Below, one piece after another: positions 548-41,827 of a DNA stretch of 64,000 bases. The DNA is from Actinomycetota bacterium. GTDB taxonomy: Bacteria > Actinomycetota > Acidimicrobiia > Acidimicrobiales > Ilumatobacteraceae. The notes under the pieces were generated by a model. It was given only the letters and a program-made list of their open reading frames with translations, searched no databases and had not been told where the DNA came from. Position 1 is the stretch's first letter; every line of letters starts with the position of its first letter. The DNA lies in assembly GCA_039185545.1 (NCBI GenBank), contig JBCDAK010000001.1, positions 3,652 through 67,651 on the forward strand, given 5' to 3'. The position numbers and the translations under genes were made by a program.

Positions 548-2140
548 TCAGGAGGCGCCGCTGCCCTTGAGCACGACGCCGACGGTGCGGGCGCAGATCT
601 TGACGTCGTGCACCAGCGACCAGTTGTCGACGTAGTACAGATCCATCCGCTTGTAGACCTCGAAGGTGCTGTCGGAGCGACCGGACACCTGCCACATGCC
701 GGTCAGGCCGGGCATGACCCGCAGGCGGTCGAGGGTCTCCTCGTCCCACTCCTCGACCTCGCTGGGGAGCGCGGGGCGGGGGCCGACCATGCTCATCGAT
801 CCGAGGAGCACGTTGTAGAGCTGCGGCAGCTCGTCGATGGAGAACTTGCGGAGGTAGCGGCCGACCTTGGTGATGCGCGGGTCGTGCTTCATCTTGAAGA
901 GCGGCCCGTCCATCTCGTTCTGCTCGCGGAGCTCGGCGAGCTTCTCCTCGGCGTTGACGATCATCGTGCGGAACTTGATGACCTCGAACAGCTCGCCGTC
1001 TTTGCCCACCCGGACCTGCTTGAAGAACACGGGCCCGCGCGACGTGGTCTTGATGAGGAGGGCGGCGATGAGCTGGATGGGCAGCGTGAGCACGAACACG
1101 GTTCCGGCGAGAGCGATGTCGTAGGCCCGCTTCGCGACCGCGCGCCATCCGTGACGGATGGTCGGCTCGACGTAGATCATGGTGCGTCCGTCGAGGCTCT
1201 GCGGACGCAGGCGCGTGACGTCGATGTCGCGGAGCGCCGAGGACAGTGCGACGTGGTAGCCGCCGTCGGTGAGGCGACGCGTCAGCTGGTTGACCTCGTT
1301 GGTGGCGACCGAGGCGAGCGACACCACGACGCCGCCGACACGGTTGGCCTGGAGCACCTGCTCGAGCTCGTCGATCTTGCCGATGACCTCGACTCCGTTG
1401 CGCTCGCCGATGTCGTCGTCGCCGACGAAGCCGACGACCTGATAGCCGAGCGACGGGTTGCGCTGGTAGGCGTGCAGCAGACCGATCGCATGTGGGTCGG
1501 TGCCCACGATGACGATGCGGCGAAGCATGCGGCCCTCTTCGCGGAGGGTGCGGAGGCGAGCTCGGACGTACCGACGCTCGAACAGGATCGCCGCGGTGGC
1601 GCAGACGAAGAGTGCGCCGACGTAGAAACGCGAGAGCGAGTCGTACTGGATGCCGAACGAGAGCAGGACGAGGAACGCCACGCCGGTGAACACGGTCTTG
1701 ATGACGTTGCCCGCCTCGACGATGCGGCGCTCGTTGGCCCTCGCGAGATAGAGATGGTTGATCGCAGCTCCGGCGGCGAACGCCGGGAGGCTGGCGGCGA
1801 CGAGCAGGACGTGGTCGAGGACCACGAAGCTGGGGGCGGGACGGAGCACCGCCTGTGCGGCGAACGCGATCGCGGCACCGACGATGAGCGCGGCGAAGTC
1901 GGCGGCGATCATGGCCCGCTTCACGGCGGTCGGGCGCACACGTTTGCGCGCTCGTCGCTCGATCCCCCCGGGGCCGTAGATCGGCCCGGAGCCGCTCTCC
2001 GCGTCGACGTCGGCGTCGGCCGGTGCGTCGGACGGAGCCGCGGTCGGCTCGATCACGGCGGGGTCGGTCGAGAGTTCGTCGGTGACTGACGGGTCCGCAC
2101 CGCCGTTCACTCCCACACCTGGCCTCGCATTCACGTCCAC
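548..2140 (-). CDS. Priming polyprenyl-phosphate hexose-1-phosphate transferase (WcaJ/CpsE/GumD family sugar transferase)
   Basis: N-terminal TM helices, a central CoA-binding-like region (IVIVGT) and the Bac_transf C-terminus (FFKQVRVGKDG..FKFRTM, DPRITKVGRYLRKFSIDELPQL, SMVGPRP, PGLTGMWQV, DLYYVDNWS). Confidence 0.95.
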   Translation of the reverse strand: MDVNARPGVGVNGGADPSVTDELSTDPAVIEPTAAPSDAPADADVDAESGSGPIYGPGGIERRARKRVRPTAVKRAMIAADFAALIVGAAIAFAAQAVLRPAPSFVVLDHVLLVAASLPAFAAGAAINHLYLARANERRIVEAGNVIKTVFTGVAFLVLLSFGIQYDSLSRFYVGALFVCATAAILFERRYVRARLRTLREEGRMLRRIVIVGTDPHAIGLLHAYQRNPSLGYQVVGFVGDDDIGERNGVEVIGKIDELEQVLQANRVGGVVVSLASVATNEVNQLTRRLTDGGYHVALSSALRDIDVTRLRPQSLDGRTMIYVEPTIRHGWRAVAKRAYDIALAGTVFVLTLPIQLIAALLIKTTSRGPVFFKQVRVGKDGELFEVIKFRTMIVNAEEKLAELREQNEMDGPLFKMKHDPRITKVGRYLRKFSIDELPQLYNVLLGSMSMVGPRPALPSEVEEWDEETLDRLRVMPGLTGMWQVSGRSDSTFEVYKRMDLYYVDNWSLVHDVKICARTVGVVLKGSGAS

Positions 2141-2463: not shown

Positions 2464-5400
2464 TCAGGTCCCGTCGGACGGCTCGTCGTGTGGGTGATCG
2501 TCCCACCGGTCGAGGATCGGGCCGATCCGCGCCCAGAGATCGGTCACGTCGGGATGGCGGAACATCGATTCGTGATCGCCCGGTGTCGTCACCACGTCGA
2601 GTGAGCCCGCGACGTACTCCGACCAGTGGTAGTCCTCGGGTTGGTAGGGCCACATGAGGTCGGCCTTGATGACCGCGACGTCGAACTCGACCACCGACGG
2701 TCGATGGAGCAGGGCGACCTCGGTGAAGTGGTCGTACAGATCGCGAACCCCTTCCTCGAGTTGGTCGCGGAGCTCGGGTGGCACGGGCTCGGCGCCGTGT
2801 TCGAGTTGCGGACCGAGCAACTTCAGCAGTCGACCGCCGAATCGGTTCTTCAGGTACGGCATGGTCGCTCGTGGTCCGGCGGTCGCGACGTGACGGATGA
2901 CGTTCCAGCGCGACGACCAGCGCGGCAGGCTCATCGCTCCGGGTGGCACGCTGTCGAACAGCACGACGCCCCGCACCTCGTGGCCGAGCTCCTGGAGTCG
3001 CCGGCCCATGTCGAGCGCGATCAATCCCCCTCCGGAGAAGCCCCCGAGGAGGTGCGGCCCGTCGGTCTGGGCGGCGAGCGCCTCGACGTATCGCTCGGCC
3101 ATCGCCTCGATCGTCGGGTCGGGTTCGTCGCGATCGTCGATCCCGATCGCCTGGACACCGACCAACGGGCGTCGCTTCCGCATCAACCGCGCCAACGGCG
3201 AGAGGAACATCACATTGCCGCCTGCCCCGTGCACGACCGTGAAGGGCGTGCCCTCGCCGGTCGTGTTGAGTCGCACGAGCGTGCGCGGGGATCGGCGCGG
3301 CGGCGCGTCCGTGCGAGCACCGGTCGCCGCGGTCGCAGAGCTCACCATCCCGGCCGCGGCGCCATCGGCGTCGTCGGCCTCACCGGATCCGTGGACGTCG
3401 TCGACGCCGACCCGGTCATCGACATCGGGATCGGCGGTGCGCAGCACGGTGGCGAGCTCGTCGATCGTCGGCGCCTCGAGCAGCTCGTCGAGCGCGACGC
3501 GGACCCCGAGCTCGCGATTGATGCGGGCGATCATGCGGATGGCGATGAGTGAGTGGCCGCCGAGTTCGAAGAAGTCGTCGTCGGTGGCGACCGCGACGTC
3601 GAGCAGATCGGCCCACATGCGCTGCAACGCACCCGTGAGTCCGCCGGCGGGCGCGGGCGGTGGCGTCTCGTCGCCGTGTGCGTCGGCGTCGTCGGCCGCA
3701 CGATCGCGGAGTGACTCGAGGTCGACGGTGCTGACGATCAGCCGTTCTGCGCCGTCGTACAGCACACGTTCGAGCAGATCGCCCGCGTCGTCGGCGTGCA
3801 GACCGGCTCCCTCGGCGAGCGCGACGAACCTCGATGCGCCGCGGGGGACCCGCGACCGGCTGGTCCGTGGAACCGGCCCGCTGCGCAGCGACGCGCCCGG
3901 TTCGAGCCGACGGAGGACCAGACGGTCGACGTCGACGAGCGGCTCGCCGTCGACGGTCGTGATCGTGATGTCGACGACGACCCGCCGGTCGGTCCGTTCG
4001 ACCGCCCTCGCCGTGGCATCGACGGTCCCCGGAAGACGGCGGTGCCATCGGAGAGCGTCGAGCGACACGGGAACGAGGAGTCCGTCGAGGTCCGCAGGGC
4101 GGAGTGCTGCACCGAGGCCGACGGCGAGGTCGACGAGTGCGGGGTGGGCGTGCCAGTGGTCGGTGTCGCCCTCGAGATGCGATGGCAACGAGAGCCGGGC
4201 GCGGGCGACCTCGTCGGCGACCCTCCCGAGCTGGTCGGCAGCCCATCGCGGGCCGACGCGGAGCGACGCCTTCTGGGTCGACATCGGGTCGAACCCGGCG
4301 GTGAGATCGGCGAGGTCGAATCGCGTCGCGGAATCGGCCGATCCGGAGTCTCCGGCGCCGGGATCGCGACCGTCGACGGCATGCCGATCGGCGGAAGCGA
4401 CGGCCTGGGAGTGAGTGCGCCACCCCCGACCGAGACCATCGTCGCTCTCGACCTCGAGGTTCCACCGGCGATCGCCGTCTGGACGCACCGTCACGCCCAC
4501 GCTGACGATTCGATCGTCCGGCACGACGAGCGGGTCGATGAACAAGACGTCGGAGACCGTCGGTCGCTCGATCCCGGCGGCCGCACAGGCGGCGAGCATC
4601 AGCTCGAGGTGCCCGGTTGCAGGGAGCAGCGACGTGCCCGTGGCGGTCCGGTGCTCGCCGGCGACCCAGTCGTGTCGGGCGTCGAGTCGCCCGGCGATGC
4701 GCACCGCGCCGTCGTCGCCGGGAAGAGAGTGGCGAGCGGTGAGGACCGGGTGGTCGATCGGGTCGCCGTCGACGAGGCCGAGGCGGAGTACGCGTGCGGC
4801 GTCGGCGGCGAGGCCGATGCCGGCCCACGCGCCCGAGTTGAGCGTGACGACCCGGACTCGTCCCCTCCGGCCGATCGACGCATCGAGCACCGCGTTGGCA
4901 GCGACGTAGGCGACCTGTCCCTCGGCGCCGATGGTGGTACTCGTCGACGACAGCAGCAGCAGGAGGTGGCCGCCGACGGCGTCGAGGGCGGCGGCGAGCT
5001 CGAGGGCGGCGGTCGCCTTCGGTCGGATCACCCCGGCCCGAGTCTCGGGGTCGGAGAGAGCGATGAGCTGATCGTCGAGCGCGCCGGCGGCGTGGATGGC
5101 GCCGTCGACCGAACCGAACCGCTCGACCGTCCGATCGACGGCGTGCCGGACCGCGATCGGGTCGGCGACGTCGGCGACGAGGACCTCGACGTCGGCCCCG
5201 GCCGCGCGGAGGTCACGCACGCGGATGATGCGTCGGCTCGTCGGGTCGGCCGAGCCGTGCTGTGCGATCCAGGCGTCCCACTCGTCGTCCGGCGGGAGCG
5301 GCGACGACGAGGTGACCGCCAGACGGACGCCGTGGGTCACCGCCAGGTGGTGAGCGAACACGAATCCGACGTCACCGAGGCCTCCGGTGACCAGGTAGAC

Positions 5401-8400
5401 GCCGCCGGGGACGAACCGGGAGCCGTCGACGCCGGCACCCACGTCGGCCAATGTGTGGGGATCGTCGACACGCCGTCGCACCAGCTCGGGAACCACGCGT
5501 GAGTTCGCGTCGAGTGCCACGCGAGCGGTCTCGGCCACGAGTTCGTCGACGATGGCGGGGACCCGGCCGACGGTGTCGGGCTCGAGGTCGATCCAGGTGC
5601 TGGCCGTCCCGGCGAACTCCTGCGGTGCGACCATCACGGGTCCGGCGACGAGTGCGTCGGCGGGCCGCATGGCGGGACCGAACGCGTCGCTCGCGCCGAT
5701 GGTGATCGCTGCGAGCGACACACGTTCGTGGGCCAGCGACAGCTCGGCGAGCCGGTCGACCGCGTGGGTGGACCACCTGTCGATGGCGGCGTCGAGATCG
5801 TGATCGGGTCCGTCGCGTCCGATCAGGAGCAGCACGACGTCGTCGGCGCCGCGGAGCGCATCGACATCGCCGTCGGGCCACTCGACGACCGTCATGCCGC
5901 GTCGACGCAACTCGTCGGTAACCGCAGCGGCGAGCCGGCTCGTCGACGCAGCTCCGTCGACGATCCAGATCGACTCGGTGCGGCGGGCGGTCGACTCTCC
6001 GGCGGGTGCGCCCGTGATCCAGATCGGTTCCCAGAACCAGTCGGCCGAGTCGGGGATGCGACTGATCGACGGGGCCGCCGCGGAACCGGTCGTGACCCCG
6101 GTGACCACCGGACGGACCGTCGCGTCGCCGGGGTCGATCCAGTGGCGCGTGCGCTGGAACGGATACGTCGGCAGCCGCCGGCGAACTCGACCGTCGCCGA
6201 GCGGGGGTGTGGGAGGCGAGGGGACACCCGCTGCCCACATGGCCCCGAACGCACCGATCGAGTGGACGGTGTCGTCGATCGAGTCGTTCGGGTGCCGGAG
6301 CGCTGCGATGGCGGCGTGTGGGCCCGACTCGTGGTGCCGTGCGGCGGACGAGAGCGCGTGGCCCGGCCCCAGCTCGACACCGACCCACCGGCCACCGGTG
6401 CCGATCGTGGTGAGACAGTCGGCGAACCGAACCGTGCCGCGCAGGTGATCGACCCAGTACTGCGGATCGGTCGCCTGCTCCGATGAGATCCAGTCGCCCG
6501 TGAGATTCGACGGGTAGGGCGTGGCGGGCGCCGTGAGGCGGACCGCACGGACCGCGTCGTGGAATCGATCGAGAACCGGGTCGAGGATCGGGCTGTGAGC
6601 GGCAGCATCGAGCCGGAGCGGGTGCGCCGACACACCGTCGCCCTCGAGTTCGGCGGCGAACGACTCGATGAGGTCGTGGCGGCCGGCCACGACGCAGTCC
6701 TCCGTGGTGTTCACCACGGCGATGGCGAGGCCGGACGGCAGTCGGTCGAGGCACTCCTTCTCCGCCAGTCCCACCGACAGCATCCCGACGCCCTGCTCGA
6801 CCGCCGCCCCGGCCTCGGTCATCAGGCGACTGCGAGTGACGACCAGGCCGGTCGCGTCGTGGAGGTCGACGACGCCGGCGAGATGAGCGACCACGTACTC
6901 GCCGAGGCTGTGCCCGAGGAGCGCATCGGGTCGGGCTCCCCAGGCCTCCCACTGGCGTGCGAGAGCCACCGACGTGGCGAAGACCGCGGGGAGCGACACG
7001 TCCGCGCGGCGCAACTCGTCGGAGTCGGGGCGTCCGCCGCGCAGCAACGGGTCGAGATCGGGACCGTCGACGTCGCGCACCGATCGGATGATCGTGTCGA
7101 GCGTGTCGTGGAACACCTCGAAGCGAGTATCGAGGCCCTGGGCCATCGACGCGTACTGCGCGCCGCCGCCGGGGAACAGGAACACGAGGCGGGAAGGGTG
7201 CTCGTCGGCCCCTGACGTGAACGAGCGTCGGCGGTCGAGATCGCGCAGCTGGCCGGGTGCCGCACGTGTGTCGGTGACGGTCACGACGCGGCGATGAGCG
7301 TGAACGCGTCGCCCGGTGGCGAGCGTGTGCGCGACGTCGGCGAGTTCGAGGGCGGGCTCGCGCTCGAGATGATCGGCGAGGTCGGACTGCAGCGCGTCGA
7401 GTGCCACCGGGTTGACGGCCGAGAGGGCGAGGACGTGTTCCGGTGGTCCGGGCGCGCCAGCCGGTTCGTCGGGCGCCTGCTCGAAGATCGCGTGAGCGTT
7501 GGTCCCGCCGACCCCGAGCGAACTGACGCCCGCCCGGCGTGGACGGTCGCCGGGCCACGCGGATGCGTCTCCCGAGAGGACGAACGGCGAGCGATCGACG
7601 TCGAGGAGCTCGCTCGGACGCGTGTGGTTGGCGAGCGGGGGGAGCACCTGGTGGCGTAGCGCCTGCACGACCTTGATGGCGCTGGCGACGCCGGCAGCGG
7701 TGTCGAGATGGCCGATGTTGGGCTTCGTCGACGTGAGGCGGCAGAAGCCCGTCTCGTCGGTGGACGCGCGGAACGCCTCGGTCAGCGCGGCGAACTCGAT
7801 CGGGTCGCCGACGGCGGTGCCCGTGCCGTGCCCGTCGACGAGTTCGATGTCGCGCGCGCTCAGCCCGCTCACCGCGAGCGCCTCCTGGACGGCGTCGGCG
7901 TGTCCGTCGACGCTCGGTGCGAGGAAGCCGACCTTGCGCGAGCCGTCGTTGTTGACCGCGGTTCCCTTGATGACCGCCAGGACGGGATCGCCGTCCTGCA
8001 GCGCGTCGGTGAGCCGGCGGATGGCGAGCATGCCCGCGCCACTGGTGAGCACGGTGCCGCCCGATCGCTCGTCGTAGGCGCGGCACCGTCCGTCGGGCGA
8101 GAGGATCTCGCCGTCGCGATAGGTGTACCCGACGCCGTGGGGTACCTCGATCGTCGCGCCGCCGGCGAGTGCGAGGTCGCACTCGAAGCTCAGCAAGCTC
8201 TGCGCCGCCAGGTGGATCGCGACGAGTGAGGTCGAGCAGGCAGTCTGGACGCCGATGGACGGCCCGTGCAGGTCGAGCTTGTACGAGATGAAGGTCGGGA
8301 GGAAGTCCTTGTCGTTCCCGGTGTGACGGAGCAGGAACCACCCGATCCGGTCGACCAGGTCGGTCGTCATGAGGTTGTTGACGAGGTACGTGTTCATGCC

Positions 8401-8832
8401 GCACCCGGCGAACACGCCGATCGCCCCGTCGAACCGTTCGGGCACGATCGCAGCGCCCTCCAGCGCCTCCCATGCGCACTCGAGGAGGTGGCGATGCTGC
8501 GGGTCCATGATGGCGGCGTCGCGTGAACCGATCCCGAAGAACTCGGGGTCGAACAGGTCGACGCCGTCGAGCACGCCGGCGCGTGTCACGTACTCGCGAT
8601 CGTCGACCACCGCAGCCGGCACCCCGGCCTCGACCAGGAGGTCCGGGTCGAGATCGACCAGGCAGTCGTCGCCCGACACGACGCGCTGCCACAGTCGGTC
8701 GACGTCGGGTGCGCCGGGGAACCGCCCCGACATCCCGACGACGGCGAGGTCGGTCTCGGCCACCGCGTCGGCCCGGGCGGGCGCTTCGAGTCCCGCAGCG
8801 TCGACCTCGTCGCGCCGGCCCGTCGACGTCAC
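2464..8832 (-). CDS. Single-module type I polyketide synthase, KS-AT-KR(with inserted DH)-ACP-TE
   Basis: KS triad TACSTS/HGTGT/IGHLD; AT GHSLG with AAHS; KR GGLGDVG and GQVAYVAAN; DH HRTATGTSLLP and HPALVD; ACP GGHSL; TE GFSGG and PGDH. Confidence 0.95.
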   Translation of the reverse strand: MTSTGRRDEVDAAGLEAPARADAVAETDLAVVGMSGRFPGAPDVDRLWQRVVSGDDCLVDLDPDLLVEAGVPAAVVDDREYVTRAGVLDGVDLFDPEFFGIGSRDAAIMDPQHRHLLECAWEALEGAAIVPERFDGAIGVFAGCGMNTYLVNNLMTTDLVDRIGWFLLRHTGNDKDFLPTFISYKLDLHGPSIGVQTACSTSLVAIHLAAQSLLSFECDLALAGGATIEVPHGVGYTYRDGEILSPDGRCRAYDERSGGTVLTSGAGMLAIRRLTDALQDGDPVLAVIKGTAVNNDGSRKVGFLAPSVDGHADAVQEALAVSGLSARDIELVDGHGTGTAVGDPIEFAALTEAFRASTDETGFCRLTSTKPNIGHLDTAAGVASAIKVVQALRHQVLPPLANHTRPSELLDVDRSPFVLSGDASAWPGDRPRRAGVSSLGVGGTNAHAIFEQAPDEPAGAPGPPEHVLALSAVNPVALDALQSDLADHLEREPALELADVAHTLATGRRVHAHRRVVTVTDTRAAPGQLRDLDRRRSFTSGADEHPSRLVFLFPGGGAQYASMAQGLDTRFEVFHDTLDTIIRSVRDVDGPDLDPLLRGGRPDSDELRRADVSLPAVFATSVALARQWEAWGARPDALLGHSLGEYVVAHLAGVVDLHDATGLVVTRSRLMTEAGAAVEQGVGMLSVGLAEKECLDRLPSGLAIAVVNTTEDCVVAGRHDLIESFAAELEGDGVSAHPLRLDAAAHSPILDPVLDRFHDAVRAVRLTAPATPYPSNLTGDWISSEQATDPQYWVDHLRGTVRFADCLTTIGTGGRWVGVELGPGHALSSAARHHESGPHAAIAALRHPNDSIDDTVHSIGAFGAMWAAGVPSPPTPPLGDGRVRRRLPTYPFQRTRHWIDPGDATVRPVVTGVTTGSAAAPSISRIPDSADWFWEPIWITGAPAGESTARRTESIWIVDGAASTSRLAAAVTDELRRRGMTVVEWPDGDVDALRGADDVVLLLIGRDGPDHDLDAAIDRWSTHAVDRLAELSLAHERVSLAAITIGASDAFGPAMRPADALVAGPVMVAPQEFAGTASTWIDLEPDTVGRVPAIVDELVAETARVALDANSRVVPELVRRRVDDPHTLADVGAGVDGSRFVPGGVYLVTGGLGDVGFVFAHHLAVTHGVRLAVTSSSPLPPDDEWDAWIAQHGSADPTSRRIIRVRDLRAAGADVEVLVADVADPIAVRHAVDRTVERFGSVDGAIHAAGALDDQLIALSDPETRAGVIRPKATAALELAAALDAVGGHLLLLLSSTSTTIGAEGQVAYVAANAVLDASIGRRGRVRVVTLNSGAWAGIGLAADAARVLRLGLVDGDPIDHPVLTARHSLPGDDGAVRIAGRLDARHDWVAGEHRTATGTSLLPATGHLELMLAACAAAGIERPTVSDVLFIDPLVVPDDRIVSVGVTVRPDGDRRWNLEVESDDGLGRGWRTHSQAVASADRHAVDGRDPGAGDSGSADSATRFDLADLTAGFDPMSTQKASLRVGPRWAADQLGRVADEVARARLSLPSHLEGDTDHWHAHPALVDLAVGLGAALRPADLDGLLVPVSLDALRWHRRLPGTVDATARAVERTDRRVVVDITITTVDGEPLVDVDRLVLRRLEPGASLRSGPVPRTSRSRVPRGASRFVALAEGAGLHADDAGDLLERVLYDGAERLIVSTVDLESLRDRAADDADAHGDETPPPAPAGGLTGALQRMWADLLDVAVATDDDFFELGGHSLIAIRMIARINRELGVRVALDELLEAPTIDELATVLRTADPDVDDRVGVDDVHGSGEADDADGAAAGMVSSATAATGARTDAPPRRSPRTLVRLNTTGEGTPFTVVHGAGGNVMFLSPLARLMRKRRPLVGVQAIGIDDRDEPDPTIEAMAERYVEALAAQTDGPHLLGGFSGGGLIALDMGRRLQELGHEVRGVVLFDSVPPGAMSLPRWSSRWNVIRHVATAGPRATMPYLKNRFGGRLLKLLGPQLEHGAEPVPPELRDQLEEGVRDLYDHFTEVALLHRPSVVEFDVAVIKADLMWPYQPEDYHWSEYVAGSLDVVTTPGDHESMFRHPDVTDLWARIGPILDRWDDHPHDEPSDGT

Positions 8833-11800
8833 GAGCCGCCACCGCCGCGCCGCGACAGGGCGCGTCGTCGTCGAGCACCGCGCGCCGAACCGGAGTCGGC
8901 GGTCGGCCGGTCGGCCGAGGACCCGCTCGACGTGTCGGCCGCGCCGTTCGGCCGGGCCGCCGCCGGGACCTCCGCCCCGATCGTGCGGAGATGGGCGCCG
9001 AGCGTCCGGACGGTCGGGTAGCGGAAGACGTCGGTCAGCGCGATCGGTCCGGGAGAGCGCTCTTCGAGCTGGCGGAACACTCGCACCGCGAGGAGGGAGT
9101 GTCCGCCGATCTCGAAGAAGTTGTCGTCGAGGCCGAGTGGTCGGCCCAACGCGGCCGACCAGAGCGATGCCACGAGACCTTCGCTGTCGTCGTCGAACGC
9201 ACGGTCGACGAGGTCGGCCGTCGGCACCGTGGCCTCGCCGTCGACGACGTCGTGAGGAAGGGCGGCGGGAAGGGCGTTGCGGTCGACCTTCCCGTTGGGG
9301 GTCAGTGGCAGGACGTCGATCGGTCGGATGACGTCGGGGATCATGACCGACGGCAGCTCGGCGGCGGCGTGGGCCCGGAGGTCGTCGACCTCGAACCGAC
9401 CCGTCGACACCACGAACGCAGCGAGGATCGGGTCGATCGAGTCGCCACGGGGCACGACGATCGCCTGCACCACATCAGGGTGGCGGTCGAGCACCGACTC
9501 GATCTCTCCGAGCTCGATCCGGTGCCCGCGGATCTTCAGTTGGTTGTCGGACCGGCCGGCGAACTCGACCGTCCCGGCCGAGGTGAGACGGACGATGTCA
9601 CCAGTCGCGTACGTCCGACCGAGTGCGTCGCGATCGACGAAGCGTTCGGCCGTGAGCTCGGGGCGATCGTGGTAGCCGCGGGCGACGCCGAGTCCGCCGA
9701 TGTGCAGTTCCCCGTAGCCGCCGACCGGAAGCGGCCGACCGGCGTCGTCGAGCACGGTCACGGTGGTGTTGGCGATGGGCCGGCCGATCGGGATCGAGCC
9801 GTCGGCGACCGTGTCGATCTCGTGCACCAGCGACCAGATCGTGGTCTCGGTGGGCCCGTACATGTTCGTGAAACGGCCCGAGAGGATCTCGCGGAGCTGT
9901 CGAGCCAACGCGACCGGCAGCGCTTCGCCGCCGAGCAACAGGTGGCCCACGTCGGCGAGCGATCGTCGGTCGGCCGGGTCGGCGAGGAGCATCGCGGCGA
10001 GCGACGGCGTGCACTGGAGATGTGTGACGCCGTGACGTCCGACGAGTTCGGCGACCGTCTCGGCCCGGTCGGGATCGGAGGTTCGGTGAGGCGCGATCGT
10101 CCGCGTGTCGTTCTGATCATCGGCGCCGGAGCGAACCCGCTCGTCGACGAGCCGGCGCGTCTCGGCCAGCCGGTCGAACGACCCGAGCACGAGGTCGGTG
10201 TCGACGCCGAAGTCGATCAGGCAGGCGACCTCGTCGACCCCGACGGCGGCCACCCGGGCGATGACGTCAGCGGCGTCTTCGGGCGTTCCGAACAGTCCGC
10301 TGGTGTCGAGGTAGCGGGAGGCGGCCATGTCGAGCAACTGGTCCATCTCGTCGTCGGTGAGCGACTCGAACGCGGCGTCGTCGGCAGCTCCCGAGCCGGC
10401 GAAGGTGGGAAAGGAGGACGCCATGTTGCGGATGAGTCCGACGGCCGTCCCGAGGTACGCCTTCATCGGATCCCGCGCCGCCTCGACGGCGGAGTCGCGG
10501 TCCGCGTCGAGATACGTGTGGAGCATCAGCGTGACGTGGCCCTCGCCGGGATGTCCCGCCGCCCGCCACGCATGTCGGTATCGCTCGAGGTTGGCCGCGA
10601 GCTCGTCGATGTTCTGCCCGAGCAGGTGCGTCAGCACGTTCAGGCCGAGCGCGCCCGCTCGCTCGAACGTGGCGGGGGTTCCCGCCGACGTGAGCCACAC
10701 GGGCAACTCCTCCTGGACCGGTCGCGGCAACGTCGACGTCGAAACGGGGGAGCCGTCGTGACCGACGAGGTCGACGGCCTCGCCTCGCCACAGGGAGCGG
10801 ACCGTGTCGATGAGGTGCGGGAGATGCTCCCGTGCCCGCCCGTACTCGGACGGGTTGAGAACGAAGTCGTTCGGCTGCCATCCCGGCGCGAACGAGATGC
10901 CCACGCGGCCGCCCGACAGGTTGTCGACCACCGACCACTCCTCGGCGACCCGTACCGGTGAGTGGAGGGGGAGCACCACGCTTCCCGCCCGGATGGCGAC
11001 TCGGGAGGTGGTGGCCGCGACGGCAGCACCGACGACGCTCGGGTTCGGGTACGCCCCGCCGAACTCGTGGAAGTGGCGCTCCGGGGTCCACACCGCTTCG
11101 AATCCGTTCGCGTCGGCGAACCGGGCACCCTCGAGCAGAAGGCGATATCCGTCGACACCGGCCGAGGCGTCTCCGGCGGCGAAGTAGAAGAGGCTCATCG
11201 ACACCGGTCGAGTCGGTACGGGGTCGTGCGATGCCGGTGCGCGGACGGCTCGGGCCGTGGGAGCCGTCGTCACGGATCGGGCGCCGCTGTCCGCCTTGAG
11301 GACGACGTGGAAGCCACGAGCCAGGGTCCACAGGAGCTCGAGGACCGAGATGTCGAAGGACAGACTGGTGACGGCGAGCCACACGCCGGGCGGATCGTGG
11401 TCGATGACCTCGTCCATCGCCGCGAAGAAGTTCACGACGTTTCCGTGCTCGAGCATCACGCCCTTGGGGACACCGGTCGACCCCGAGGTGTAGATGACGT
11501 AGGCGAGGTCGTCGGCGGTGTGGTCGGTGTGGGCGGCGTGCGCGGATCCCGGACCGTCAAGGTCGCCGGCCGTCTCCGTGGTGGCAGTGGGATCGACGTC
11601 GGAGGGATCGACGACGGTGAGCCCCTCGGTGACGAGCGACATCTCGTCGCCGGCCACCAGGATCGTCAGCTCGGAGTCGGCGACCATGTGCTGGAGGCGA
11701 TCGGTCGGATACGCAGGGTCGAGCGGAACATACGCGGCGCCGGTCCGGAGCGTCGCGAGCACCGATGTGACGAGTTCCACGCTGCGGGGCACCGCCAGAC

Positions 11801-13649
11801 CGACCCGGGTGCCGGGGCCGGCACCGAGGCCGCGGAGACGCGCCGCGAGCCGGTCGGCTCGTGCGACGAGATCGCCGTACGACACGGTGGAGTCGCCCCA
11901 GGTGAGTGCTGCCGAGTCGGGTGTCGCCGTCGCCTGCTTCCAGACGAGCCCGTCGACCGTGGCGGTCGTGTCGATGTCGACGCGGGTGTCGTTGAGCGTC
12001 TCGAACGCTTCACGATCGGCGAGTGTGACGACGTCGATCTCGGCCGGCGACGTGTCCGCACCGAGCGCTGCGAGCACCGACTCGACCCTCTCGAGCCAGC
12101 CGCGGGCGACGTCGCCGGGGACGTCGGATCGGTGCCGCAGTCGAAGCCGGCCGGCGGCGACATTGAACCAGAGGAGCGTCGACTCGCCGGGGCGATCCAA
12201 GTCGACGTGCTCGCCGATCCGGAGGAGCACCCGTGGATCGGCGGGTGTGACCTCGGGTCGGCGTCCGATGAGGTCGGCGAGGAACGGGCCGAGCTCGGTG
12301 ATCTCGGCGAGCTCGGCCTCGACGGCCGCGAGGAGGTCGGCGGCGGCGACGTGGTCGACCCGGAGGTCTGCGATCGGGGCGCGGACGAGCGGCCCGAACG
12401 ACGCAATGGTGTCGGCGGTGCTCCGGTCGGGGACGACGGCGAGGTGCGCCCGGTCGGCACCGGCGCTGCGGGCGAGCGTCAGCGCGATGGCGGCGACCGC
12501 CTCGGCGTTCGTGCCGACCGACACCTCGCCGAGATCGATCCACGAGCGTGACGCGACCGACAGGTCGGAGGTCGAGTCGACGATCTCGGCGAGTTCGGTG
12601 AGCGATGTGACCGGATCGAGTCGGGAGAGTCGCTGCGCCCATGCGTTCTCGTGACGGGCCGAACGTCGATCGAGCGCGGCGAATCGCTCGACGGTCGAGG
12701 TCGGGGTCGGATCGAGTCGGTCGCCGATGCCGAGCGCGGCGTCGGCCATCAGCTCGGCTGCATCGATGATCGAGCCGTCGAGCGCCCGCAGCGCGAGCTC
12801 GATCTCGCCGCCGAGCGTCGTGAGTCGGATCCGGTCGCCTCGAGCGTCGACGACGGTCGCAGGAGGCCCTGAGGGTGGAGCGGAGGGCGCACCGGCGGTC
12901 ACGGACGACGAGTGAGCGGCCACCCAGGACTCGCCGATGCGGAGGAGAGGCACTCCGATCCGGTTGGCCGACAGTCCGCCGAGATCGAGTGCTCGGACCA
13001 GTCGGTCGATGTCGACGGCGGCTGCCGACGGGTCGAGGATGCGCGCCGGTCGATCGACCCGGAGGAACGTCGTCGATGCGCGATCGGGTTGGGGGGAGCG
13101 ATCCACGGACCCGTCGGCGATCGCTCGCGCGAGGTCGGGGAACGACGAAAGCGCCGCTTCGTAGCAGCGCGCGTTGAGGGAGAACGCGGTCTCGTCGTCC
13201 GCGATCGCGAACTCTCGGACCGTCGCGATGTCGCCGCGGTCGACGTTCGACGACATGTGGTGCCAGGTGATGGCGTGGTGTCGGCGGTCGTCGAGGAGGG
13301 CCCAGGAGGTCACGTTGAGACCGACCAGATCGGGGAGCGGCCCGTCGTGGAAGTTCAGTGCGAGGTCGGCCCGCGCGAGCAGTGCGTCGGGCACGATCCG
13401 GAGGTGCGCGATGGACATCAACACGTCGACCTCGCCGTCGAGACCGACGTCGGCGAGGTCGGACGCGATGTCTCCGTCGGACCGGACGACCGGGATCCCC
13501 AGCTCGTCGGCGAGCCGGGTGACGCGCGGATGGACGGTGGCCATCCCGACGACGTCGATGCCGTGGGCGCGGGCGATCTCGACGCACTGGCCGGTGAGCG
13601 GTTCGTCGCCGATGACGATGGCGCGCTTCGTCGGACGGATCGACTGCAT
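8829..13649 (-). CDS. NRPS starter protein: formyltransferase - degenerate C-like spacer - adenylation domain interrupted by a luciferase-like monooxygenase - PCP
   Basis: Formyltransferase LNFHDGPLP and VDRGD; A motifs YVPLDP, YTSGSTGVPKG, FDIS, NMYGPTETT, GELHIGG, YATGD, GRSDNQLKIRGHRIELGEIE, NGKVDR; LLM SLFYF, AVWTPERHF, GGAYPNP, GSVVLPLH; PCP GGHSL. The stop overlaps the PKS start (8829-8832). Confidence 0.93.
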   Translation of the reverse strand: MQSIRPTKRAIVIGDEPLTGQCVEIARAHGIDVVGMATVHPRVTRLADELGIPVVRSDGDIASDLADVGLDGEVDVLMSIAHLRIVPDALLARADLALNFHDGPLPDLVGLNVTSWALLDDRRHHAITWHHMSSNVDRGDIATVREFAIADDETAFSLNARCYEAALSSFPDLARAIADGSVDRSPQPDRASTTFLRVDRPARILDPSAAAVDIDRLVRALDLGGLSANRIGVPLLRIGESWVAAHSSSVTAGAPSAPPSGPPATVVDARGDRIRLTTLGGEIELALRALDGSIIDAAELMADAALGIGDRLDPTPTSTVERFAALDRRSARHENAWAQRLSRLDPVTSLTELAEIVDSTSDLSVASRSWIDLGEVSVGTNAEAVAAIALTLARSAGADRAHLAVVPDRSTADTIASFGPLVRAPIADLRVDHVAAADLLAAVEAELAEITELGPFLADLIGRRPEVTPADPRVLLRIGEHVDLDRPGESTLLWFNVAAGRLRLRHRSDVPGDVARGWLERVESVLAALGADTSPAEIDVVTLADREAFETLNDTRVDIDTTATVDGLVWKQATATPDSAALTWGDSTVSYGDLVARADRLAARLRGLGAGPGTRVGLAVPRSVELVTSVLATLRTGAAYVPLDPAYPTDRLQHMVADSELTILVAGDEMSLVTEGLTVVDPSDVDPTATTETAGDLDGPGSAHAAHTDHTADDLAYVIYTSGSTGVPKGVMLEHGNVVNFFAAMDEVIDHDPPGVWLAVTSLSFDISVLELLWTLARGFHVVLKADSGARSVTTAPTARAVRAPASHDPVPTRPVSMSLFYFAAGDASAGVDGYRLLLEGARFADANGFEAVWTPERHFHEFGGAYPNPSVVGAAVAATTSRVAIRAGSVVLPLHSPVRVAEEWSVVDNLSGGRVGISFAPGWQPNDFVLNPSEYGRAREHLPHLIDTVRSLWRGEAVDLVGHDGSPVSTSTLPRPVQEELPVWLTSAGTPATFERAGALGLNVLTHLLGQNIDELAANLERYRHAWRAAGHPGEGHVTLMLHTYLDADRDSAVEAARDPMKAYLGTAVGLIRNMASSFPTFAGSGAADDAAFESLTDDEMDQLLDMAASRYLDTSGLFGTPEDAADVIARVAAVGVDEVACLIDFGVDTDLVLGSFDRLAETRRLVDERVRSGADDQNDTRTIAPHRTSDPDRAETVAELVGRHGVTHLQCTPSLAAMLLADPADRRSLADVGHLLLGGEALPVALARQLREILSGRFTNMYGPTETTIWSLVHEIDTVADGSIPIGRPIANTTVTVLDDAGRPLPVGGYGELHIGGLGVARGYHDRPELTAERFVDRDALGRTYATGDIVRLTSAGTVEFAGRSDNQLKIRGHRIELGEIESVLDRHPDVVQAIVVPRGDSIDPILAAFVVSTGRFEVDDLRAHAAAELPSVMIPDVIRPIDVLPLTPNGKVDRNALPAALPHDVVDGEATVPTADLVDRAFDDDSEGLVASLWSAALGRPLGLDDNFFEIGGHSLLAVRVFRQLEERSPGPIALTDVFRYPTVRTLGAHLRTIGAEVPAAARPNGAADTSSGSSADRPTADSGSARGARRRRALSRRGGGGS

Positions 13650-13769: not shown

Positions 13770-14906
13770 TCAGTCGGCGGACGACGCTGCGGCGAGCGAG
13801 TGCAGGCGCTCGATCGTGATGGCGGCGTTGGCGCGTACGTCGAACCGCTCGGTGGCGAGTTCGCGACCGCGACGGGACATCGACCCCCACCGCGTCGCGT
13901 CGTCGACGATCGATTCGATCGCGGCACCGAGTTCGCCCGGCCGCTCGGGAGCGACGAGGAGGCCACTGACCCCGTCGTCGACGATGTCAGCCGAGCCGCC
14001 GACGGTCGACTGCACCACGGGCAGGCCGGTCGCCATCGCCTCGATCGCGGCGATCCCGAAGCACTCGCCACGGCTCGGGAGGACGAACACGTGGGCGCGC
14101 CGGTACAGCTCGAGGAGCTGGGGGGAGTTGGGCGTGAGGTCGTCGTGGACGCGCACGCCGGGGCGGGCGTCGACCGGTTCCCGCGTGACCAGGTCGATCT
14201 CGATGTCGGAGCGACCGCTCGCGGCGTGCCACGAGAGCAGGTCGTGTCCGCCCTTGCGGGCGAAGTCACTGCCGACGAACAGCACGCGGATCGGGCCGTC
14301 GTGGCCCGGAGACATCCGCTCGACGGGTTGCCATCGGTCGAGATGGACACCCGGCGGATTGACGAACACCTTGTCGGGGTCGATCCCGTAGTCGTCGACG
14401 ACTGATCGCGCAGCCCAGTGTGACCACGCCTGGAGAGCGACGACGCTCTCGAGCAGACGCTTCTGCAGCACGAACTTCAACTTCGCGAGCGGCGCCGGAT
14501 CGGGCGTCGGGGTGTAGTCGGGCATCGCGTCGAGCTGGACCGGTGTCGAGTCGAAGTCGAACATCGTCGGTGTCGCCCGGAAGCGACGGACGAAGAGCAG
14601 GGCGATCGACGCATTCGTGAAGATCACGTCCTTGTCGACGCCGGCGAGCCCCCGCCGCATCTCGACTGCACCCCGGGACACGCCGCGCACGTATCCGGGG
14701 ACGATGCGGACGGCATCGGCGAACCTCTCGATGCGGCCGGACTCGCTGTAGTAGTCGACCTCGATCCATCGCGGATCGAGCGAGCCGTCGTCGTCGACGG
14801 CGCCGCGGAGGTTGTGGTACCTCGTGACGTGACCCGCGATCTGGTCCATTGCGAACGCGACACGCGGACGTGACGGAGGTGGACTCGGGGAGACGACGTT
14901 CTCCAC
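13770..14906 (-). CDS. Glycosyltransferase family 4
   Basis: VLFVGSDFARKGG and FVLPSRGECFGIAAIEAMATGLPVV (GT4 ExF/G..E signature). Confidence 0.92.
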   Translation of the reverse strand: MENVVSPSPPPSRPRVAFAMDQIAGHVTRYHNLRGAVDDDGSLDPRWIEVDYYSESGRIERFADAVRIVPGYVRGVSRGAVEMRRGLAGVDKDVIFTNASIALLFVRRFRATPTMFDFDSTPVQLDAMPDYTPTPDPAPLAKLKFVLQKRLLESVVALQAWSHWAARSVVDDYGIDPDKVFVNPPGVHLDRWQPVERMSPGHDGPIRVLFVGSDFARKGGHDLLSWHAASGRSDIEIDLVTREPVDARPGVRVHDDLTPNSPQLLELYRRAHVFVLPSRGECFGIAAIEAMATGLPVVQSTVGGSADIVDDGVSGLLVAPERPGELGAAIESIVDDATRWGSMSRRGRELATERFDVRANAAITIERLHSLAAASSAD

Positions 14907-18571: not shown

Positions 18572-19114
18572 ATGGGCGGGCTCGGCGACCACGATCCGGC
18601 GCGGGCCCTACGCGCCGACGCCGCCCGGTGGCTCGTACCGCAACAGTTCGGCGATCCGGCGGCGGTGACGCCGCTGGTGCTGCTCAAGCTCCTCGTCCGG
18701 CACCCACCTCTCCGCGCGATGGCCTGGTTCCGGCTCGGGAGCCTGTGCTCCCATCGCGGGGTCCGGGGGGTTCCCTCGTGGGTCCAGCGTCGCCTGCTCC
18801 GCCTCTACGGCCTCGAGCTGGCGGTCGGGGCGTCGATCGGCGGCGGCCTCTACATCGCTCATCCGGTCGGATGTGTGCTGAATGCCGAGTCGATCGGTGA
18901 CGACGTCACGGTGATCTCGCAGGTCACGTTCGGGACCCGCACCGACGGACGATGGCCGCGTGTGGCCGACCGGGCTTTCTTCGGTGCCGGTGCTCGCATC
19001 CTCGGTGGGATCGAGATCGGCGAGGAGGCTCAGATCGGGGCCAACGCCGTGGTCCTCGACGACGTGGCCCCGGGGTCGGTCGTCGTCGGCGTCCCCGCGC
19101 GGCCGGTGGCGTGA
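18572..19114 (+). CDS. CysE/WcaB-like hexapeptide O-acetyltransferase
   Basis: IGGGLYIAHPVG, IGDDVTV.SQVTFG, GAGARILGGIEIG, IGANAVV, VGVPAR. It lacks the large N-terminal domain of true CysE. Confidence 0.88.
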   Translation: MGGLGDHDPARALRADAARWLVPQQFGDPAAVTPLVLLKLLVRHPPLRAMAWFRLGSLCSHRGVRGVPSWVQRRLLRLYGLELAVGASIGGGLYIAHPVGCVLNAESIGDDVTVISQVTFGTRTDGRWPRVADRAFFGAGARILGGIEIGEEAQIGANAVVLDDVAPGSVVVGVPARPVA

Positions 19115-20382
19115 TGGCCGGACGGCTGCTGTCGGCCTGCGGATCGGGACTCCGGGGAGGGCTCGGTGCGCTCGGGTTCGCCTCCGCGACCGCGGTCGCC
19201 GTCCCCGCGACCTATCTCGCAACGCTCACGGCGCTCGGTCTGGCTCGCAACGGGTCGGCGTCGATCGGTTCGGACTCGTCGTCGGGTCGCGCACGGGTGC
19301 CGCGACGCATCGCCGTCTGTGTTCCCGCTCACGACGAGGAGGCCGTCATCGTCGAGACGATCAGCGCGTTGATGGCGCAGGACTACCCGGACGACCGCTT
19401 CGAGGTGCACGTGGTCGCCGACAACTGCTCCGACGCGACCGTCGAGCTGGCCAGGAGGGCCGGAGCCACGGCCCACGATCGTCGGGCTCCCGACGATCCC
19501 GGCAAGGGAGCGGCGCTCAACTGGCTGCACGATCGACTCGACGGGTTCGACGCATTCGTCATCGTCGACGCCGACACCCTCGTCGAACGCAACTTCCTGA
19601 CCGAGATCGATCGTGCGCTCGATCGCGGACATCGGGTCGTGCAGGGTTTCTACGGCGTGCTCGAACCCGAGCAGTCGCCGGCGGTCGCGCTGCGGTACGC
19701 GGCGCTCGCCGCGCGACATCACCTCCGTCCACTCGGCCGCCGGGCGCTGGGTGGGTCGTGCGGATTGTTCGGCAACGGCATGGCGTTCGACGCGTCGGTG
19801 CTCGAGACCCGGCGATGGTCGGGGCACCTCGTCGAGGACGCCGAGTTCCAGCTCGAACTGCTCCTCGACGGCGAGATCGTCGACTACGCACCCAGCGCCC
19901 GGCTGGCCGCCGAGATGCCGACGTCACTCGACGAGTCCGAGACGCAACACCAGCGGTGGGAGCTCGGACGTGCGCAGATCGCCCAACGATTCCTTCCCGA
20001 GCTGGTCCGACTGATCGGGAGAGGTGGATCACGCCCTCGACGTGTCTACCTCGACGCGGCGCTCGACCAGGTCACACCACCCATCTCGGCTCTCGCGGCG
20101 GCGAACGGCGCCGTCACCGTCCTCGGTCTCGTGTCGTGGGTCGCCGGTGCCCGGACGGGCCGCCTCGTGACAGCGGTCGGGATCGGATCGATCGGCGTCC
20201 TCGGTGTCCACACGGTCGCCGCACTGCGCTCGGTCGGGGCGCCCACGTCGATGTACCGGGCTCTCGCCGCTGCGCCGCAGCTCGTCGTGTGGAAGCTGGG
20301 CCTCCTCAAGGACGTGTCTCGCCGACCCGATGACGTCTCATGGACCCGGACTCGACGCAATGCGGACACCCGGGTCCGGTGA
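19114..20382 (+). CDS. Glycosyltransferase family 2 (cellulose-synthase-like, membrane-associated)
   Basis: ATG at 19114 coupled to the upstream TGA. Motifs: VPAHDEE, VADNCSD, GKGAALN, DAD, VEDAE, QHQRW (QxxRW). Confidence 0.9.
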   Translation: MAGRLLSACGSGLRGGLGALGFASATAVAVPATYLATLTALGLARNGSASIGSDSSSGRARVPRRIAVCVPAHDEEAVIVETISALMAQDYPDDRFEVHVVADNCSDATVELARRAGATAHDRRAPDDPGKGAALNWLHDRLDGFDAFVIVDADTLVERNFLTEIDRALDRGHRVVQGFYGVLEPEQSPAVALRYAALAARHHLRPLGRRALGGSCGLFGNGMAFDASVLETRRWSGHLVEDAEFQLELLLDGEIVDYAPSARLAAEMPTSLDESETQHQRWELGRAQIAQRFLPELVRLIGRGGSRPRRVYLDAALDQVTPPISALAAANGAVTVLGLVSWVAGARTGRLVTAVGIGSIGVLGVHTVAALRSVGAPTSMYRALAAAPQLVVWKLGLLKDVSRRPDDVSWTRTRRNADTRVR

Positions 20383-20389
20383 TCCTGCC

Positions 20390-21496: not shown

Positions 21497-21638
21497 CGTG
21501 TCTCCACCTCGAACCGGCGGGCGCGGCGGCGCGGCGGATTCGTGCTGCTCGACCCGTCGTCCGACCGGCCGAGGCGCCGGAAACCGCCCCATCGATCACC
21601 GCTAGCCTGTCGGCGGCACGCTCACCGAGGAACGAGAC

Positions 21639-23758: not shown

Positions 23759-23789
23759 CGCCGGGAGCCGACTCGACCCCTCGCCGCCC

Positions 23790-23936
23790 ATGCAGGTCCT
23801 GCTGCTGTTCCTCCTGACCGCATTCATCATCGGAGGAACATCTCTCGGAACACCGATCCGGCGGCGCCCCTGGCTCCTGTTCGCCGGATGTAGTGTCGCC
23901 GCAGCGATGTACTACAGCATCCGGGTGGTCCAATGA
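23790..23936 (+). CDS. Small (48 aa) two-hydrophobic-segment membrane protein
   Basis: MQVLLLFLLTAFIIGG...WLLFAGCSVAAAMYYSIRVVQ. It fills the gap in the operon and its stop overlaps the next start (ATGA, 23933-23936). Confidence 0.6.
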   Translation: MQVLLLFLLTAFIIGGTSLGTPIRRRPWLLFAGCSVAAAMYYSIRVVQ

Positions 23937-25561: not shown

Positions 25562-25595
25562 CCCATCGAGGGCGTCGGCCGACGCGTCGAACGTG

Positions 25596-36522: not shown

Positions 36523-36600
36523 GGTCGTTGCTCCCTCCACGGCTGCGGCTGCATGGTCGGGTCGCAGTCCCGATTCGGCCGCCCATCCGCGTATCGGTCG

Positions 36601-41812: not shown

Positions 41813-41827
41813 CGTCGGTGCCGTGAG

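Follow-up and report, generated by a model that had tools for sequence, protein, structure and literature searches.

What is a hybrid assembly line that opens with a formyltransferase doing among the genes for a polysaccharide? The question is raised by a 64,000-nucleotide stretch from an Actinomycetota bacterium of the family Ilumatobacteraceae (GenBank assembly GCA_039185545.1, contig JBCDAK010000001.1, positions 3,652 to 67,651 of the forward strand), referred to here as the window, which carries on its minus strand a nonribosomal peptide synthetase (NRPS) gene coupled to a polyketide synthase (PKS) gene. Here, we describe this gene pair domain by domain and propose that it encodes a two-protein, single-extension NRPS-PKS line that works within a Wzx/Wzy polysaccharide island through the steps set out below, a proposal to which we give about even chances. 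We also put forward, tentatively, that the line makes a short glycine-derived enoyl unit, N-formylated or aldehyde-bearing, which its thioesterase would transfer to a repeat-unit sugar. The two genes are:

8829..13649, minus strand: NRPS gene, 1606 amino acids (aa), ATG start; formyltransferase, putative C-lobe remnant of a condensation domain, glycine-type adenylation domain split by a luciferase-like monooxygenase, peptidyl carrier protein
2464..8832, minus strand: PKS gene, 2122 aa, GTG start; a single module of ketosynthase, acyltransferase, ketoreductase, dehydratase, acyl carrier protein and thioesterase

Both open reading frames (ORFs) lie where an earlier, sequence-only reading of this DNA had placed them, and the coupling that it described is borne out: four nucleotides, GTGA, hold both the stop of the NRPS (TGA) and the start of the PKS (GTG), a 4-bp overlap of the genes, and the called NRPS and PKS genes of an Ilumatobacter locus (L004) likewise overlap by 4 bp. 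With a third-position G+C fraction of 0.87 in each, in a window of ~70% G+C, they are the sole coding-like frames across the region. Pfam recognizes in the NRPS Formyl_trans_N (residues 56-169), AMP-binding in two stretches, Bac_luciferase (819-1139), AMP-binding_C and PP-binding, and the protein also matches the NCBIfam models TIGR04020 and TIGR01733; in the PKS, Pfam finds ketoacyl-synt, Acyl_transf_1, KR, PKS_DH_N/PS-DH, PP-binding and Thioesterase, with E-values from 1e-10 to 1e-85. At the junction, the NRPS ends in a conserved Arg-rich tail (window positions 8829-8970; R1594 and R1600 invariant, ...RGARRRRALSRRGGGGS) and the PKS begins with an acidic stretch, DEVDAAGLE...AVAETD (8750-8832); these two ends may form an electrostatic docking pair.

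The NRPS is divided as follows:

12765..13649, minus strand: formyltransferase (F) domain, aa 1-295; catalytic and C-terminal subdomains; N99, H101, D137
11970..12662, minus strand: putative condensation (C)-domain remnant, C-terminal lobe only, aa ~330-560, ~230 aa; no HHxxxDG motif
11250..11957, minus strand: adenylation (A) domain, N-terminal part, motifs A1-A4, aa 565-800; Pfam AMP-binding at 570-787, profile positions 2-239
10143..11216, minus strand: luciferase-like flavin monooxygenase (LLM, of the type called MOX) within the A domain, aa 812-1169; Pfam Bac_luciferase, E 1.7e-48
9264..10091, minus strand: A domain, C-terminal part, motifs A5-A10, aa 1187-1462; second TIGR01733 stretch and AMP-binding_C
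8988..9173, minus strand: peptidyl carrier protein (PCP), aa 1493-1554; GGHS with S1518; Pfam PP-binding

The F domain has the same two-subdomain layout as ArnA and methionyl-tRNA formyltransferase (FMT). Searched against the sequences of the PDB, it matches the ArnA formyltransferase with an E-value of 8e-11 and the F domain of LgrA at only ~1e-3, and GDP-perosamine formyltransferase is also a far better match than LgrA. An AlphaFold2 (AF2) model of the domain (pLDDT, the model's per-residue confidence score, 92.8) finds ArnA formyltransferase and FMT as its top Foldseek matches, with template-modeling (TM) scores, normalized to the target, of ~0.8, and LgrA F is not among the top 50. The two F domains nonetheless belong to the same superfamily and share their catalytic residues. 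The N-x-H and D residues that the sequence-only reading had called intact are N99, H101 and D137; they align with the catalytic residues of ArnA and are invariant in alignments of 14, 50 and 28 homologues.

Some 270 aa lie between F and A. Residues 290-570 have no match by Pfam or by PDB sequence search, and hhalign places this region colinear with the C-terminal lobe (residues 189-426) of a C domain encoded in the window itself, a weak alignment taken alone (E 0.033, probability 1.5%). The identification of the C-lobe comes from fold prediction plus Foldseek: an AF2 model of residues 296-575 (pLDDT 91.2) returns only C-family domains among its top 50 matches in the PDB (best E 2.6e-7), including Txo1 C, RzmA Cs, an X-domain and LgrA C. 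On the strength of this model we read residues ~330-560, about half as long as a full C domain, as a C-lobe remnant and the formyltransferase as standing where the absent donor-side lobe would lie.

The A domain is interrupted between motifs A4 (FDIS, 765-768) and A5 (NMYGPTE, 1262-1268) by the LLM, the same position as in MtaG-type modules. Read from these two motifs, its specificity code is D766 I767 L770 Q1212 L1238 G1240 M1263 I1271 W1272 K1454, or DILQLGMIWK, and 28 full-length orthologues from more than eight phyla keep it as DILQ[LMFY]G[MV]IWK. The domain is thus predicted to be of the glycine-code type, as the sequence-only reading had it, and the same ten letters are published verbatim as the code of glycine-activating A domains with a MOX insertion in a 2025 survey (PMC12283262), in which every MOX module found lies in a glycine domain and the MOX is described as hydroxylating glycine and then cleaving its backbone to leave a terminal amide. 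As support for the code we also considered the best PDB match, the glycine-specific module 2 of LgrA, and set it aside: its pocket residues differ (FDISVAE..., NIYGPTE), and it is uninformative on specificity. The LLM itself scores 477 bits against TIGR04020, the MupA/Atu3671 family (cut-off 244), and among solved structures it comes closest to the PuwE Ox domain (6KET, E 5e-107). Downstream, G1515, G1516 and S1518 of the PCP are invariant in the 14-homologue alignment. The domains named in the sequence-only reading hold up; what it had missed is that the LLM sits inside the A domain and that a ~230-aa domain separates F from A.

The PKS is a single module:

7477..8751, minus strand: ketosynthase (KS), aa 28-452; C199/H335/H375; Pfam
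6340..7185, minus strand: acyltransferase (AT), aa 550-831; GHSLG with S642, R667; AAAHS at 743-747
4822..5403, minus strand: ketoreductase (KR), aa 1144-1337; TGGLGDVG, LDD (B-type), Y1309, N1313
3889..4752, minus strand: dehydratase (DH), aa 1361-1648; H1394...P1404 and D1568; Pfam PKS_DH_N and PS-DH
3445..3630, minus strand: acyl carrier protein (ACP), aa 1735-1796; S1761; Pfam PP-binding
2560..3237, minus strand: thioesterase (TE), aa 1866-2091; S1933/D1960/H2087; Pfam Thioesterase

What had been written as "KR/DH" is therefore two domains, both present, in the order KR then DH. Every catalytic motif is intact, and 43 orthologues keep the KS Cys-His-His, the AT GHS[ML]G and Arg, the NADPH motif, LDD-type Asp, Tyr and Asn of the KR, the DH His and Asp, the ACP Ser and the TE Ser-Asp-His; the KS motifs, H1394 and D1568 of the DH, and S1761 of the ACP are invariant in the 43 sequences. 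The closest solved KS-AT is that of 8xju/8xjy, a PKS that is also present in entry 8xjz together with an NRPS chain, which would be in keeping with a KS that accepts an amino-acyl starter.

The AT bears on a further element of the sequence-only reading, which had taken malonyl-CoA as the extender. Its specificity motif, AAAHS (family consensus IAAHS), is neither HAFH nor YASH and is atypical, with no malonyl signature, which turns the malonyl-CoA extender into an assumption. The closest solved ATs are 5yda, with an identical AAAHS, which we take to be the broadly selective SpnD AT of splenocin, and then ZmaA (4qbu), a hydroxymalonyl-ACP AT; the units taken by these relatives are bulky alkylmalonyl or hydroxymalonyl. 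A review (PMC6164871) confirms that structures of the SpnD AT exist, not that 5yda is one of them, and describes how residues at the specificity-motif positions gate extender size. Genes that could supply unusual extender units stand beside two related clusters: a methylmalonyl-CoA mutase gene and a glyoxalase/epimerase-like gene at one locus (L086, 23996-24677), and, at the Ilumatobacter locus L004 (817-2723 and 5919-8381), FkbH_N with an ACP, a Methyltransf_21 gene and a MaoC-SDR gene. The 64-kb window has no counterpart of the first two, and FkbH, MaoC and Methyltransf_21 genes of the Ilumatobacter kind were not found in it. From the motif, its solved relatives and the supply genes at related loci, we therefore leave the extender open: candidates are malonyl and methylmalonyl, but also malonyl units that are larger or oxygenated.

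A link of the pair to a glycan is suggested by its setting. It sits between a priming transferase and a glycosyltransferase (GT) of family GT4, with the polymerization and export genes lying beyond:

548..2140, minus strand: priming polyprenyl-phosphate glycosyl-1-phosphate transferase; Pfam Bac_transf and CoA_binding_3; TIGR03025 EPS_sugtrans at 403 bits, above cut-off
13770..14906, minus strand: GT4 glycosyltransferase directly upstream of the NRPS; Pfam Glycos_transf_1 and Glyco_trans_1_4
18952..30166: Wzx/Wzy machinery, comprising a GT2, a WecG/TagA-family GT, a Wzz-like protein, a tyrosine autokinase, Wzy_C, a GT4 and a Wzx-type flippase; Pfam and NCBIfam

Matches to Polysacc_synt, Wzy_C, GT2/GT4 and WecG all exceed their Pfam cut-offs, the GT2 and WecG genes lying at 18952-21496; the Wzz match falls below its curated cut-off (24.5 versus 25.5 bits), as do the tyrosine-kinase matches to TIGR01007 and TIGR03018. 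Two hexapeptide acyltransferases, further GTs and GFO/IDH/MocA oxidoreductases complete the picture, and the whole 64 kb reads as one Wzx/Wzy polysaccharide island.

Other genes of the island are worth recording in their own right. A second carrier-protein system occupies 41435-48773 on the plus strand, with a free-standing ACP (41435-41812), a FabF-like KS that is likewise free-standing (41828-43027) and an NRPS of 1914 aa (43029-48773; C-A-PCP-C-PCP-TE). A sulfation module at 52110-59559 and 62948-63949 encodes a CysN/CysC fusion (GTP_EFTU and APS kinase), two sulfotransferases, a CysQ-like protein of the inositol-monophosphatase family and a CitMHS/TrkA_C anion permease, and suggests that the island's polysaccharide is sulfated. 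Beyond the GT4 gene, the intervals 15025-16245 and 16266-17816, both on the minus strand, hold a ~400-aa ATP-grasp-like gene (EFEV...IDLNPR) adjoining an ornithine/diaminopimelate-type pyridoxal phosphate (PLP) decarboxylase gene; the ATP-grasp-like gene lies within the tail of a spurious 1220-aa ORF, its Pfam matches are sub-threshold, and it probably encodes an ATP-grasp ligase. This gene and its decarboxylase neighbour are not conserved as a pair at other loci. Six long ORFs (330-697 aa) of coding-type composition have no Pfam family above threshold: 26668-28614 (minus), 31371-33245 (plus), 33273-34448 (minus), 34567-36660 (minus), 59651-61564 (plus) and 61928-62920 (plus). A listed ORF at 37231-40173 (plus) overlaps a GT2 gene (36824-37822) and has Pfam matches only from residue 216 onward, to GT4 and then GFO/IDH/MocA; the true gene probably starts near 37850 and encodes a GT4-oxidoreductase fusion.

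The pair belongs to a large family. The NRPS has 509 homologues, the best of them (56% identity) from Ilumatobacter metagenome-assembled genomes (MAGs), and all of the 120 homologues listed share its Pfam set and length. It aligns over its full length with 14 and with 50 homologues, the typical family member being ~1500-1600 aa, and the architecture was confirmed at no fewer than 597 places in a collection holding one genome per species; the F and C-lobe region alone retrieves 634 cluster representatives at 50% identity (E <= 1e-30). Carriers include Leisingera, Shimia, Roseovarius, Agrobacterium sp., Rhizobium sp., Sphingobium, Burkholderiales, Myxococcota, Acidobacteriota, Chloroflexota, Rhodothermales and Cyanobacteria. 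The family as a whole spans Actinomycetota, Alpha-, Beta- and Gammaproteobacteria, Myxococcota, Acidobacteriota, Chloroflexota, Bacteroidota-related groups and Cyanobacteria. A ~2150-aa PKS with all six domains adjoins the NRPS in 59 fetched loci. The sequence-only reading had pointed to a similar pair near glycosyl genes in roseobacters and Agrobacterium, and such a pair does exist: Rhodobacter, Leisingera, Shimia, Agrobacterium sp. AGB01 and Rhizobium sp. LC145 have the same NRPS at 38-41% full-length identity, with the same PKS and with glycosyltransferases beside it.

WecG, GT2, Wzy_C or Bac_transf genes share operons with the pair in Rhodobacter, Ilumatobacter, Burkholderiaceae and a metagenome locus from the Joint Genome Institute (JGI). 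The Rhodobacter operon runs WecG, Wzy_C, PKS, GT2, NRPS and phosphopantetheinyl transferase (PPTase); that of Ilumatobacter runs NRPS-PKS-WecG and then two priming transferases; a Burkholderiaceae MAG has PKS-GT2, a divergent WecG and then the NRPS; and the JGI locus has a Wzy_C gene, a run of GTs and methyltransferases and then NRPS-PKS-WecG-GT2-PPTase. Because the PPTase is missing in 21 of 31 non-Rhodobacterales loci, it defines only the roseobacter version of the cluster. Clustering of neighbours across loci was dominated by Rhodobacterales synteny, and only simple counts are taken from it here. At two loci, in Aulosira (L008) and Acidobacteria SCN 69-37 (L085), the NRPS has no PKS within 10 kb and adjoins dTDP (deoxythymidine diphosphate)-rhamnose-type sugar genes or a priming transferase; the NRPS may also work without a PKS.

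The sequence-only reading had called for a phylogeny to settle whether the pair had been horizontally transferred. Orthologues do exist in Alphaproteobacteria, but the window copy appears to be no recent import from that class, because its best homologues are from Ilumatobacter and it groups with Ilumatobacter in a rough neighbour-joining tree of the NRPS; on the same grounds the host is probably an Ilumatobacter-like member of the Acidimicrobiia. In the same tree the betaproteobacterial copy of a Hydrogenophaga MAG (L014) nests within the Rhodobacterales clade, and gammaproteobacterial, acidobacterial and actinobacterial copies interleave, a pattern that, in a tree of this roughness, points to several horizontal transfers within the family.

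How, then, might the line work? We propose that the A domain would load glycine onto the PCP and that the F domain would move a formyl group from N10-formyl-tetrahydrofolate to the glycyl amine. Formylation could plausibly also block self-lactamization of a later 4-amino thioester; in butirosin side-chain synthesis, a gamma-glutamyl group prevents such a cyclization. The embedded MOX would then hydroxylate the alpha-carbon, as the embedded MOX of MtaG/MelG-type modules does, to give N-formyl-alpha-hydroxyglycyl-S-PCP, which may persist or collapse to glyoxylyl-S-PCP and formamide. The related PuwE Ox domain, with its proposed role of making a 2-hydroxy acyl chain on a carrier protein, speaks for this step. 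The KS would condense the starter with one extender chosen by the AAAHS-type AT, the KR and DH would convert the product to a 2-enoyl C4 (or branched) acid, and the TE would release this acid by hydrolysis or by transfer to a repeat-unit sugar.

Several observations weigh against this scheme. Biochemical data for any family member were not found in the literature, and no PPTase was found in the 64-kb window by tblastn with the Rhodobacter enzyme together with a motif scan. A Pyxidicoccus locus has no glycosyl genes within 10 kb, and a glycan gene was seen in only 13 of 31 non-Rhodobacterales loci, a count made with insensitive seeds. The F domain resembles sugar-nucleotide formyltransferases more than it does LgrA F, so its substrate could be an amino sugar; the AT substrate is not readable from sequence; the nearest solved TEs, AB3403 and the Pks13 TE, are both weak matches, and the TE fold does not separate hydrolysis from transfer. 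Nor does sequence decide the order of formylation, hydroxylation and condensation, or the fate of the hemiaminal.

These points leave room for other explanations, one of which is that offered by the sequence-only reading: a collinear line in which malonyl-CoA extends intact N-formylglycine, giving 4-formamido-3-hydroxybutanoyl or 4-formamidocrotonyl, the LLM comes into play late (for example at C2 of the ACP-bound chain) and the product acylates a sugar. Domain order, intact motifs and the glycan context favour it, as does the PuwE Ox domain, which is proposed to place a 2-hydroxyl on a carrier-bound 3-amino acyl chain (PMC4219810). However, the LLM is of the MOX type and physically embedded in a glycine A domain whose code is that of MOX modules acting on the glycine unit itself, AAAHS is no malonyl signature, and a DH-made 2-enoyl chain would lack the C2-H enolate for late hydroxylation. 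Late oxidation thus looks unlikely, and since a MOX that alpha-hydroxylates PCP-bound glycine can lead to C-N cleavage, the formamido products do not follow from the domain string and are one of several outcomes; we consider the collinear route as a whole rather unlikely. Cleavage could instead be the purpose of the module, with F and MOX together turning glycine into glyoxylyl-S-PCP as formamide leaves, and the PKS extending it to a 4-oxo-2-enoyl (fumaraldehydate-like) electrophile. This would be MtaG chemistry with the other half of the molecule retained, and we know of no precedent for it. The module does resemble a C-A(MOX)-PCP module whose donor-side C lobe has been swapped for a formyl donor, and the MOX reaction is described as hydroxylation followed by backbone cleavage of glycine (PMC12283262); against this, a free glycyl amine would collapse too once hydroxylated, making formylation needless, and the KS groups with amino-acyl-accepting hybrid KSs. 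A line dedicated to this outcome seems to us quite unlikely.

Two further alternatives concern where the pair's chemistry is directed. The F domain might formylate a nucleotide- or lipid-linked amino sugar and not PCP-bound glycine, being fused to the NRPS only for co-localization. Its best sequence and fold matches (ArnA, WbkC, FdtF, QdtF and WlaRD, with LgrA F far weaker) and its retention of the C-terminal subdomain of ArnA and FMT would fit; yet LgrA F probably has a sugar formyltransferase as its own ancestor, hundreds of lineages keep F, C-lobe, A(MOX) and PCP fused, also at loci that lack glycan genes, and F replaces exactly the donor-side lobe of the C domain, all of which make this very unlikely. 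A free or glycosylated small metabolite, such as a signal, toxin or chelator, deserves more weight, although it too remains a minority view: here the GT2 and WecG proteins would glycosylate the aglycone or merely be neighbours, the TE is a C-terminal domain of the ordinary releasing type, Pyxidicoccus has the pair without glycan genes, and the roseobacter papers treat the cluster as one for a secondary metabolite. Set against this are the operons of several phyla, in which GT genes overlap the PKS or NRPS genes by 1-4 bp and Wzy_C and priming transferases are also present, and the position of the window pair, flanked by a priming transferase and a GT4 within the 64-kb polysaccharide island. 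Finally, an oxazole-forming starter as in oxazolomycin, conglobatin and phthoxazolin would share with the window the first half of its route, F-A(Gly)-PCP followed by one PKS extension, but KR, DH and MOX do not fit that route, and no SGGxDS motif of an OzmP/CongE/PtxD-type PP-loop protein occurs in any of the six frames of the window. This rules the oxazole route out as far as sequence can, and we give it almost no chance.

If the more tentative reading holds, in which the pair builds a glycine-derived enoyl unit that the TE transfers to a sugar, it would provide the first demonstrated case of a modular NRPS-PKS building a polysaccharide decoration; the family would then be a widespread cross-phylum means of adding a reactive or charged group to cell-surface glycans, and its F/C-lobe/MOX module a new way to an alpha-oxidized glycine starter. 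Independent of the product, this is among the most widely distributed hybrid lines without a characterized product found in the literature. A 2022 review calls NRPSs with F domains "very scarce" and knows three described cases only, whereas the family counts given above show them to be common. The cluster has been listed in roseobacter papers since 2007, and as far as the literature shows its chemistry has stayed unsettled for almost twenty years. An actinobacterial member in an unmistakable Wzx/Wzy island sharpens the glycan-decoration hypothesis, and the domain-level reading translates into assayable steps, namely an ArnA-type F domain in place of the C donor lobe, a MOX-type glycine A domain and an AT with a non-malonyl signature, which make the family directly accessible to assay.

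Judged by its proteins, the window pair is orthologous to the PKS/NRPS cluster conserved in roseobacters (Martens et al. 2007). It adds an actinobacterial member to an orphan family that is already known and very widespread; the new elements are its anatomy at the level of domains, with a putative C-lobe remnant, a MOX-type glycine domain and an atypical AT, and its clear placing among polysaccharide genes. That cluster, described as a PKS, a glycosyltransferase, an NRPS and a PPTase, is present in 28 of 57 roseobacter genomes according to one of the papers of 2015, 2016 and 2023, and in 18 of 37 related species, with less than 8% similarity to MIBiG entries, according to another; all three call its product unknown, in line with the sequence-only reading. 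A roseoceramide paper and a 2026 roseobacter phage-resistance paper do not mention the cluster, and we found no characterized product of the family in the literature, subscription papers not being covered, so that this absence is no proof. The two versions share the F, C-lobe, A(MOX), PCP order of the NRPS at ~40% full-length identity, a ~2150-aa KS-AT-KR-DH-ACP-TE PKS and neighbouring glycosyltransferases. They differ in gene order, PKS-GT2-NRPS-PPTase in Rhodobacterales versus NRPS-PKS with overlapping stop and start in the window; the small GT2 between PKS and NRPS in Rhodobacterales has no counterpart there in the window, and the window pair lacks a PPTase and is set in a far larger polysaccharide island.

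Individual parts of the line have better-understood relatives. The terminal modules MtaG and MelG of myxothiazol and melithiazol synthesis have the order C-A(MOX)-PCP-TE; unlike them, the window module begins its line instead of ending it, has its C domain apparently cut down to the C-lobe with a formyltransferase ahead of it, and has no TE of its own, the TE lying on the next protein after the PKS module. With the glycine A(MOX) modules surveyed in PMC12283262 it shares the glycine A domain, the identical DILQLGMIWK and the interruption by a luciferase-like monooxygenase. The sequence-only reading had drawn its parallel with oxazolomycin-type starters, and F-A(Gly)-PCP loaders, established as makers of formylglycyl-S-PCP, do occur in the oxazolomycin, conglobatin and phthoxazolin pathways (PMC5764310). 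The oxazole route also needs an OzmP/CongE/PtxD PP-loop cyclodehydratase with an SGGKDS motif, encoded beside the loader (PMC5764310), and here the parallel ends, the window having no such partner. LgrA of gramicidin synthesis and OzmO/CongA/PtxE resemble the window NRPS in their N-terminal formyltransferase with N-x-H...D and in their PCP, and the Ozm-type loaders additionally in their glycine code and the PKS extension after the PCP. The window F domain, in contrast, is two-subdomain and ArnA/FMT-like, with marginal similarity to LgrA F, and the window NRPS has the putative C-lobe remnant between F and A and the MOX within A.

For the proposed transfer itself, the closest parallels are the 4-amino-2-hydroxybutyryl (AHBA) side chain of butirosin (BtrI/J/K/O/V/H/G) and the tetronate of Vibrio cholerae O1 (RfbK-O), in both of which a carrier-bound short amino-acyl or hydroxy-acyl group is passed to a sugar amine. 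Their core enzymes are not known to be orthologous to those of the window, whose chain would come from a modular NRPS-PKS. In the butirosin pathway the hydroxylase that acts alpha to the thioester is an LLM, an N-protecting group is employed, and a PLP decarboxylase and an ATP-grasp ligase take part. Genes for a PLP decarboxylase and, probably, an ATP-grasp enzyme also adjoin the cluster in the window, a pair reminiscent of BtrJ/BtrK in the making of the butirosin side chain and of the exosortase-A-linked ligase/decarboxylase set.

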